Shown here: piece after piece, positions 6,888 through 7,070 of the stretch
Position numbering within the stretch: the first letter of the stretch is position 1
How the letters are laid out: every line of letters begins with the position of its first letter
Origin: Candidatus Heimdallarchaeota archaeon
Lineage (GTDB): Archaea; Asgardarchaeota; Heimdallarchaeia; Heimdallarchaeales; Heimdallarchaeaceae
Direction of reading: 5' to 3'
Assembly: GCA_019894795.1 (NCBI GenBank)
Contig: JAGXNV010000027.1
Span: 1 to 18,895 of the forward strand
Length of the DNA stretch: 18,895 nucleotides
The notes under the pieces: model-generated
Seen by the model: only the letters and a program-made list of their open reading frames with translations
Told to the model about the DNA's origin: nothing
The model's database searches: none
Translations under genes and position numbers: made by a program

Positions 6888-7070
6888 ACCTAGCAAGGAT
6901 TTCAGGTTCGGAATGAGTCTGAGTGTTACCCCTTCACTATGGCCGCGACGAATCGCAACTTATGACCTTTCCCAAGTCCTCTCGGAACATAGTACCAAGC
7001 CACACGTGGAAGAGCTTAACTTTCCCGATCATCTGGAACGCATCCAGATGTATATCTGACCTTACTAGGC
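6888..7070 (-). rRNA. 5S rRNA, circularly permuted gene (3' half, UUCG cap, 5' half) inside a terminal helix
   Basis: Minus strand 7024..6953 reads GAAAGUUAAGCUCUUCCACGUGUGGCUUGGUACUAUGUUCCGAGAGGACUUGGGAAAGGUCAUAAGUUGCGA, matching the canonical loop B / helix II 3' strand, loop E, helix IV-V and helix I 3' strand. UUCG follows at 6952..6949. Then 6948..6900 reads UCGCGGCCAUAGUGAAGGGGUAACACUCAGACUCAUUCCGAACCUGAAA, matching the canonical helix I 5' strand, helix II, helix III and loop C. Helix pairings are checked in the findings. The flanks CCUAGUAAGG (7069..7060) and CCUUGCUAGG (6898..6889) pair over 10 bp. Confidence 0.8.
7030..7050 (-). other. Perfect 8-bp hairpin in the 5' part of the permuted 5S transcript
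   Basis: CAUCUGGA-UGCGU-UCCAGAUG on the minus strand. It lies between the terminal helix and the start of the 5S-homologous sequence. Confidence 0.6.

Follow-up and report, generated by a model that had tools for sequence, protein, structure and literature searches.

How does a 5S rRNA obtain its mature ends when its gene begins with the 3' half of the molecule and finishes with the 5' half? This question is raised by a locus in the 18,895-nucleotide (nt) stretch of DNA analysed here (the window; contig JAGXNV010000027.1 of assembly GCA_019894795.1), in which a Heimdall (Asgard) archaeon encodes a 5S rRNA in circularly permuted order (positions 7070..6888, minus strand). The original prediction had proposed that leader and trailer of this gene form a bulge-helix-bulge (BHB)-like element of the kind cut by the archaeal splicing endonuclease, followed by ligation into a circular RNA, or alternatively that a terminal helix clamps the ends of a linear RNA. 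All bases and pairings on which that proposal was built were correct on re-check. Read 5' to 3' on the minus strand, the gene consists of a leader, the 3' half (GUUAAGC ... GGUACU ... UGGGAA), a helix I closed by UUCG, the 5' half (running GCGGCCAUAG ... CAUUCCGAAC CUGA) and a trailer. The 3' half (6953..7020) comprises the 3' side of loop B, the 3' strand of helix II, helices IV/V with the GUACU loop E region and the 3' strand of helix I. The UUCG tetraloop (6949..6952) caps helix I at the position where the ends of a normal 5S are found, and the 5' half (6902..6948) comprises the 5' strand of helix I, loop A, the 5' strand of helix II, helix III (UCAG 6922..6919 with CUGA 6905..6902) and loop C.

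The assignment as a permuted 5S, which the original prediction had made, was borne out by two half-matches to the Rfam 5S model together with covariation of helices I, II and III. The window 5S falls below the gathering threshold of RF00001 (38 bits); with relaxed thresholds, two adjoining minus-strand half-matches were obtained at 6957-7076 (17.4 bits) and 6845-6950 (15.8 bits), one for each half of the gene. In a control with the same model, eight complete ordinary 5S genes scored 62.9-103 bits and one gene truncated by the end of its locus 41.4 bits, and on nine Asgard loci the model gave no match. The Asgard 5S is missed because the order of the gene is permuted. Apart from its half-match, the 3' half was recognised by covariation in helices II and I and by alignment with normal archaeal 5S, and the RF00001 traits are present: covarying helices I-III, the loop C sequence CCGAAC, the loop E region and a normal length after un-permuting. 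The un-permuted 121-nt window sequence aligns to normal archaeal 5S with no gap at the junction, and the alignment places the break point at the conserved AA bulge of helix III, to which A6901 and A6900 correspond.

Homologues were collected by synteny look-ups starting from GyrB relatives, by a scan of one genome per species and by a metagenome scan. The genome scan returned 56 loci, of which approximately 33 are permuted 5S genes in Heimdallarchaeota; other permuted genes were found in Baldrarchaeota, Njordarchaeota, an unclassified Promethearchaeati (Asgard) metagenome-assembled genome (MAG) and a MAG labelled Thermoproteota, and the rest of the 56 are ordinary 5S genes. Pattern matches in Nitrososphaeraceae, Actinomycetota, Micrarchaeota and others were discarded as ordinary 5S genes with a chance upstream TGGGAA. 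The metagenome scan added further permuted genes, among them a divergent lineage (L115), and all scans together yielded 51 distinct permuted precursors. Two taxonomic labels stood out: the Thermoproteota label (L058) is odd against a distribution that is otherwise Asgard-only, and a locus labelled Thorarchaeota (L026) carries a Heimdall-type precursor near-identical to those of Heimdall MAGs, so this contig may be mis-binned or mislabelled. Both closed genomes, H. aukensis and H. endolithica, contain two permuted copies each, and these are the sole 5S candidates there.

For covariation, 37 window-type Heimdall precursors (36 distinct sequences, to which the counts out of 36 below refer) were aligned, and pairs were counted for three explicit structures. 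Compensatory changes were found in 5/8 pairs of helix II and 3/7 pairs of helix I, and the stem pairs beside the UUCG covary as well (GCGA/UCGC, GCGU/ACGC, GGAU/AUCC). The four pairs of the native helix III are paired in every sequence, the first being U-A in 34 and C-G in two lineages. Outside the 5S body, the leader CCUAGUAAGG (7069..7060) pairs with the trailer CCUUGCUAGG (6898..6889) over 10 bp including one U.G, and G7070-U6888 adds an eleventh pair; in full, the 5' strand of this terminal helix, called P0 here, is GCCUAGUAAGG (7060..7070, minus strand) and its 3' strand CCUUGCUAGGU (6888..6898). Both-sided changes occur in 10 of the 11 P0 pairs, with 96.7% of cells paired, and the perfect 8-bp hairpin that was seen in the leader at 7050..7030 (loop UGCGU) shows compensatory changes in 5/8 pairs. 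Given these changes, both P0 and the hairpin are real structures. The hairpin loop lies in a context, GGAUG(C/U)GUUCC, that is kept in both of the paralogue types described below (7038-7042 in the window; 18315-18503 in L007), and the position of the hairpin relative to the helices differs between the paralogue types despite this conserved loop.

The extent of the primary transcript could be deduced from the flanks. A TATA-like box, TTAAAAA, lies at 7093..7099 on the minus strand, 23-29 nt upstream of G7070, and this distance is kept in most of 40 homologous upstream regions. Since an archaeal TATA box is usually centred about -26, we infer that it is a promoter element placing the start near the first base of P0. 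On the other side, P0 is followed by a U-rich tail (6875..6887, minus strand; UUAUAACGUUUAC, in homologues UUUUUUACGUUUAC) that is probably a terminator judging from its sequence, and oligo-T directly follows P0 in most homologues. The distance of the box and the oligo-U directly after P0 therefore indicate that the primary transcript probably spans the first to the last base of P0. The motif UUUU(A/G)CGUU(U/A)A recurs downstream of P0 in most Heimdall loci and is probably a two-part oligo-U terminator. As to the leader, about three quarters of the Heimdall precursors have exactly the P0 sequence GCCUAGUAAGG, and between the window and its relative L001 the 53-nt leader is identical at 51/53 positions, compared with just 109/123 in the 5S body. 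That the leader of close relatives varies less than the rRNA body may point to a sequence-specific partner.

The simplest fate of such a transcript would be none at all: the mature RNA would then be the unprocessed linear transcript (approximately 7070..6885, about 185 nt), in which P0 replaces helix I in protecting the ends, P0 and the hairpin are the two arms of an expansion projecting from the AA bulge of helix III, and the CUG-complementary leader elements described below serve as folding aids or alternative pairings. This is a developed form of the linear alternative contained in the original prediction, and it stands as a strong rival, with a substantial minority share of our confidence and below circularisation. 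It is favoured by the fact that P0 pairs the very ends of the transcript as fixed by the TATA-like box and the oligo-U, by the high conservation of the P0 sequence and the hairpin loop, which fits a retained RNA, and by a native helix III that is always paired and covaries.

Cleavage was originally proposed on the basis of the leader UCAG (7056..7059, minus strand), here called register 1. As claimed, it can pair with CUGA 6905..6902 and exactly repeats the 5' strand of helix III (6922..6919), so that it mimics helix III and the UCAG/CUGA fold and the mature fold are mutually exclusive. In the BHB of pre-tRNA the central helix is formed by nucleotides 32-35 with the intron, the bulges are 36, 37, i+1 and i-2, i-1, 38, and the cut is made after the second bulge nucleotide. 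The handedness of this arrangement is reproduced in the window, where AUA (7055..7053) and AAU (6901..6899) likewise lie immediately 3' of their respective 4-nt segments. The motif is, as was also stated, non-canonical. Its central helix has four Watson-Crick pairs in the window and 4 bp in 28/36 of the family, but the inner helix (h') is absent, U7052/A7051 facing C6906/A6907, and instead of two closed bulges the leader 'bulge' leads into the intrastrand hairpin. It is at best a relaxed motif because there is no inner helix, and it has the composition of the relaxed hBH type, with a 4-bp helix and one helix-flanked 3-nt bulge (the 11-bp P0, AAU and UCAG/CUGA).

The conservation that had been expected for this helix and its bulges was found in part. 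CAG/CUG is invariant, and the invariant leader CAG stands amid varying neighbours; the first pair of the helix is U-A in 27 sequences, U.G in one and mismatched in eight, the leader base being U in 28, G in seven and A in one. The trailer bulge (6899..6901 in the window) is 3 nt long in 36/36 (AAA 20, AAU 15, AAG 1), whereas the leader 'bulge' turned out to be the start of a linker to the hairpin (AUAUA, 7051..7055, minus strand, in the window) that is 4-5 nt long, has eight sequence variants in the homologues and forms no closing helix with the trailer. RNAalifold selected P0, CAG/CUG and the hairpin, with CAG/CUG on invariant columns; a further pairing that it proposed, GGAA/UUCC, involves invariant columns only and was set aside. 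Covariation within UCAG/CUGA, which had also been suggested as a check, was not found. Cuts at 7054|7053 and 6900|6899 would give a circle from A7053 to A6900, computed at 154 nt, close to the approximately 155 nt put forward originally, and this product would leave a 33-nt insertion at the AA bulge of helix III; a second register is favoured instead.

The second register had been overlooked. The leader CGGG (7024..7027, minus strand) is complementary to the trailer CCUG (6906..6903) and this helix is paired in 36/36 sequences, its second pair being G.U in 21 and A-U in 15. Three bases, AAA (7021..7023, minus strand), follow it before the 5S body, and the bases after C(A/G)GG are AAA in 35/36. 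With AAA and AAA as the two bulges, the BHB rule predicts cuts at 7022|7021 and 6901|6900, and the product would be 121 nt long, with one A of the helix III bulge on either side of its junction and the spacing of a canonical 5S. Register 2 is favoured because it is universal. In the window it agrees loosely with a relaxed BHB, given the trailer spacer AAAU and the insertion on the opposite strand.

Another arrangement was found in a paralogue, designated copy-1, of the two closed Heimdallarchaeum genomes. Here GUGGU, CAGG and AAA in the leader face CCUG, AAA and ACCAC in the trailer, so that outer helix, bulge and 4-bp helix are contiguous and adjoin the 5S body. Of the BHB reading in its original form, part is supported, namely a relaxed motif with an outer helix only; the best evidence for it comes from lineages outside the window and favours a register different from the one proposed. 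In the paralogue pairs residing in one genome (L024/L050 in CP084166, L041/L033 in CP084167 and L019/L023 in one MAG), the 121-nt bodies are 94-97% identical, and identity falls to about 50% in the leaders and trailers, which also differ in arrangement. Near-identical bodies with flanks that share half of their positions fit removal of the flanks somewhat better than their retention; if the transcripts stayed linear and unprocessed, paralogues of the same genome would yield structurally different 5S RNAs.

A similar organisation was seen in Asgard lineages that lack the hairpin. Their leaders consist of a P0 of 12-16 bp, whose sequence is unrelated between lineages, a 4-mer, AAR and the 5S body, and their trailers of the 3' strand of helix III, 3 nt and P0. 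The shared geometry in several lineages is thus a 4-nt leader element directly after P0 and a trailer element plus exactly 3 nt before P0. The two 4-mers pair perfectly in Baldr (CGUG/CACG, as CGUG|AAA with CACG|GAA) and in L115 (CCGA/UCGG, as CCGA|AAG with UCGG|AAA). They form 3 bp plus G.A in Njord, L025 and L084 (CCGG/ACGG), 3 bp plus A.A in L074 (CCGA/ACGG) and three pairs, one of them U.G, plus G.A in L058 and L095 (CUGG/ACGG). The Baldr and copy-1 genes share the window's register 2, which recurs in Njord and other Asgard permuted 5S genes as well, and a register shifted by one nucleotide, which is also possible with 4 bp in Baldr and copy-1, was not preferred given that its product would be 2 nt too long. 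When the precursors of seven lineages were cut in silico by the BHB rule and joined beside the body, all aligned gap-free at the junction with normal archaeal 5S. A retained linear transcript leaves unexplained both the 4 + 3 / 3-nt spacing across class-level divergence and the occurrence, in independent lineages, of leader 4-mers that are reverse complements of the 3' strand of helix III, and it would place at least nine unpaired junction nucleotides where a normal 5S has a two-nucleotide bulge.

The relation between the leader and trailer elements also bears on the idea that the BHB-like geometry is a functionless relic of the tandem duplication behind the permutation, or that the locus is a pseudogene. 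In Njord and L025 the leader CCGGAAG does resemble a copy of the trailer ACGGAAG, CCGG being palindromic, and a loosely defined BHB is very often met by chance: a scan with a loose definition (flank of at least 3 bp) gave 31 matches in the sequence and 46 ± 10 in shuffled sequences, which is uninformative, although a long flank of 11 bp was found at the register 1 site only. In Baldr, Heimdall and L115, however, the leader 4-mer is related to the trailer strand as its reverse complement and not as a copy, which argues for selection on pairing and against a mere duplication relic. For a single sequence, the chance of a 4-bp helix in the exact register beside an existing helix is about 0.4% (Watson-Crick) to 2% (with G.U). 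In addition, the leader elements are invariant next to variable bases, more than 45 distinct sequences preserve the permuted 5S with compensatory changes, and it is the sole 5S candidate in the closed genomes. We therefore regard a relic or a pseudogene as very improbable.

Taken to its consequence, the preferred model is as follows. P0, the 3-nt trailer bulge and one of the 4-bp helices would form a relaxed BHB motif that has an outer helix but lacks an inner one. In each bulge, the Asgard (αβ)2 splicing endonuclease would cut behind the second nucleotide, and ligation of the resulting 5S ends by the tRNA ligase RtcB would give a covalently closed circle. In register 2 this would be a 121-nt circle with the AA bulge restored and the hairpin discarded with the leader; the predicted junction sequence is TTCCGAACCTGAAAGTTAAG, reading ...CCGAACCUGAA|AGUUAAG.... 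In register 1 the circle would measure 154 nt and retain the hairpin, which would expand the AA bulge, with CGAACCTGAAAATACATCTGG or family variants as the predicted junction sequence, reading ...CCUGAAA|AUACAUCUGG.... An enzyme of suitable specificity has been described: Asgard archaea, including Heimdallarchaeota AB_125, are reported to have an (αβ)2 endonuclease with an L1 loop that accepts motifs without one outer helix (PMC5829648), and AB_125 is locus L016 of our collection, a carrier of the permuted 5S gene. No endonuclease gene is located within the window. A search of a protein collection with the translation across the predicted circular junction gave three matches, all of them in genomic order. 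On the sequence evidence given above, we consider endonuclease cleavage and circularisation of the permuted 5S, with register 2 favoured over register 1, to have about an even chance of being correct. The wider statement, that ribosomes of the Heimdall, Njord and Baldr types hold a covalently circular 5S made by the splicing endonuclease and RtcB with its junction in the AA bulge, is quite possible, at somewhat less than even chances.

Several observations weigh against such processing. Either 4-bp helix requires helix III to be unfolded, and helix III is a local hairpin that would form first during transcription. Both-sided changes are absent from either 4-bp helix, the trailer strand being fixed because of its role in the 5S fold; in the two lineages where the first pair of helix III has become C-G instead of U-A, register 1 shows no compensating change in the leader, and its first pair is U.G in L106 and A.G in L060. 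In register 1, moreover, 8/36 Heimdall sequences have 3 bp plus a mismatch and the copy-1 paralogue of the two closed Heimdallarchaeum genomes has no UCAG/CUGA helix; register 2 is not contiguous with P0 in the window, where 38 leader nt including the hairpin intervene and the trailer spacer is 4 nt (AAAU). In several of the other Asgard lineages the central helix has just 3 bp plus a mismatch. Nearest-neighbour energies did not discriminate between the folds (minimum free energy (MFE) fold -65.7, register 1 -64.0, native -61.4 and register 2 -59.9 kcal/mol), and the strong conservation of the hairpin loop and the P0 sequence is unexpected for RNA that is discarded. Finally, the break occurs at the site that has been called least obstructed for insertions into 5S rRNA (PMC7812874). 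Nothing at such a permissive site forces removal of the flanks or ligation, and an unprocessed linear RNA carrying P0 and the hairpin as an expansion is sterically plausible there and thus a serious rival. Two further readings of the leader were examined and rejected. An inner helix between the leader UCGGGA and the loop C sequence UUCCGA, present in the MFE fold, is separated from the central helix and has A where G is needed in 15/36 sequences, and a C/D-box reading (AUGAU in the 3' strand of the hairpin plus CUGA) involves a C-like box that is unconserved in the homologues.

The flanks could also be removed by other nucleases, such as an AU-rich endonuclease of the RNase W/FAU-1 type, tRNase Z or exonucleolytic trimming, giving a linear 5S with its ends in the helix III bulge and P0 as a transient structure. 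Both tRNase Z and FAU-1/RNase W have been connected with the maturation of archaeal 5S, circularisation has been described for archaeal 16S and 23S rRNA and not for 5S, the linkers adjoining the body are A/U-rich (AUAUA, AAAU), and leader-trailer helices are a general trait of rRNA precursors. With free ends within a 2-nt bulge, on the other hand, the 4-bp helix III and loop C would be anchored from one side only, there is no tRNA-like element beside the ends, and the conserved 4/3/3 geometry would be without a role. This explanation appears improbable, if less so than a relic.

Cleavage by the splicing endonuclease and circularisation would not be without parallel. The signal recognition particle (SRP) RNA of Thermoproteus tenax/uzoniensis is encoded by a permuted gene with a 23-nt leader and a TATA box at -26, its leader and trailer form a BHB that is cut by the heterotetrameric endonuclease, and the RNA is circularised (Plagens et al. 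2015, PMC4731332). The host endonuclease is heterotetrameric and of relaxed specificity there and, as reported, also in Asgard archaea (PMC5829648). By analogy, this RNA is a close precedent for the Asgard 5S: in both, the gene is permuted, the canonical gene had earlier been reported missing, a TATA box precedes a short leader by about 26 nt, the new ends are flanked by pairing between leader and trailer, and the former ends are closed. Ligation restores a conserved element of the SRP RNA; in the 5S it would do so in register 2, and register 1 would leave the 33-nt insertion. The two differ in that the Asgard 5S has no inner helix, a central helix that competes with a mature helix and two possible registers, and in that the SRP RNA has been characterised by RNA-seq junction reads, Northern blots and in vitro cleavage, whereas processing of the Asgard 5S is predicted from its genes. 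Permuted tRNA genes, reported for Cyanidioschyzon merolae by Soma et al. in 2007 and for archaea by Chan et al. in 2011, are said to have the 3' half upstream, BHB-type ends and a circular intermediate, which is reportedly reopened at the acceptor stem by RNase P and tRNase Z. In the Asgard 5S, in contrast, helix I is capped by a stable UUCG or by an extended stem-loop and there is no hint of reopening.

Among rRNAs, archaeal 16S and 23S are excised through a leader-trailer helix with an endonuclease motif and the excised rRNA is circularised, and ribosomes can contain rRNA in circular form, with circular or permuted 23S as the example (PMC12918454, PMC7758197); these genes are collinear, unlike the Asgard 5S, and their motifs are located in long stems of polycistronic precursors. 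Retention of a linear RNA also has its precedents. Brown-algal mitochondrial 5S rRNA has its ends outside helix I and is missed or mis-delimited by standard covariance models (Valach et al. 2014, PMC4267664), and although permuted it is functional as a linear RNA. In that case the α domain alone is rearranged, with a 5' or 3' hairpin in place of helix I, the ends lie at the α/γ junction, and there is no BHB; the ends of the Asgard 5S lie in the β domain, at the helix III bulge, and it does not belong to the brown-algal type. Expansions at the helix III bulge itself are known from the 5S rRNA of Thermoanaerobacterales (Stepanov and Fox 2021, PMC7812874), where they include two-hairpin expansions; the bulge is solvent-exposed atop the central protuberance. 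Those are closed hairpins in a collinear gene, whereas the Asgard 5S would have an extra helix that carries the ends of the transcript.

The surroundings of the gene are archaeal. GyrB is encoded at 851-2959 on the minus strand and its nearest relatives are proteins of Heimdallarchaeaceae; other archaeal neighbours in the window are an RPA-like OB-fold protein, a MiaB-like radical SAM enzyme, HypE/HypF and a membrane-bound hydrogenase/Nuo-like cluster. The sole Rfam match in the window at the gathering threshold is a tRNA-Ser(GCU) at 7201-7283 on the plus strand, divergent from the 5S and about 130 nt upstream of its transcription start. By GyrB-based synteny, the permuted 5S adjoins a DUF5752 gene and tRNA-Ser in relatives, including the closed genome of Ca. 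Heimdallarchaeum aukensis, and the order DUF5752, 5S, tRNA-Ser is retained in relatives with 70-87% GyrB identity. In four loci with 87% GyrB identity (L001-L004; 3329-5900, 8803-12600), resolvase and Cas12f1/TnpB-like genes lie between the MiaB-like gene and gyrB, where the window has an amino-acid kinase gene, and their GyrA contains a LAGLIDADG intein. In the Baldr locus L039, a 124-nt tRNA match (4443-4566) lies close to the permuted 5S; its length suggests an intron-containing tRNA, which could reveal BHB motifs accepted by that endonuclease. Open reading frames run antisense to the permuted 5S (6868-7059 and 6923-7081 on the plus strand of the window; 6835-7008 in L005) and are long enough for gene calling, and the public entries P0121-P0123 are hypothetical proteins of 74-85 amino acids.

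The locus is of a known kind, a permuted RNA gene with a BHB-type motif at its ends, and what is new relative to the literature searched is its occurrence in 5S rRNA and in Asgard archaea; in that literature, in which few subscription journals were covered, we found no permuted or circular 5S in archaea or Asgard and no permuted 5S outside organelles. The finding explains the statement, made with the closed Heimdallarchaeum genomes (PMC8813620), that 5S rRNA genes 'could not be predicted': the gene is present and permuted, and Rfam-based annotation misses it because of the permutation. Where a 5S gene is required by genome-quality standards, these genomes are consequently rated too low, and the locus is annotated by gene callers as hypothetical proteins. 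If the proposed processing is true, 5S would join SRP RNA, tRNAs and 16S/23S rRNA among the substrates of the archaeal splicing endonuclease, and Asgard ribosomes would contain a circular 5S. A 5S that is both permuted and circular would then be a first for cellular, non-organellar genomes, in the archaea most closely related to eukaryotes. Being common to several Asgard classes, the permutation could serve as a rare genomic marker in the group closest to eukaryotes.

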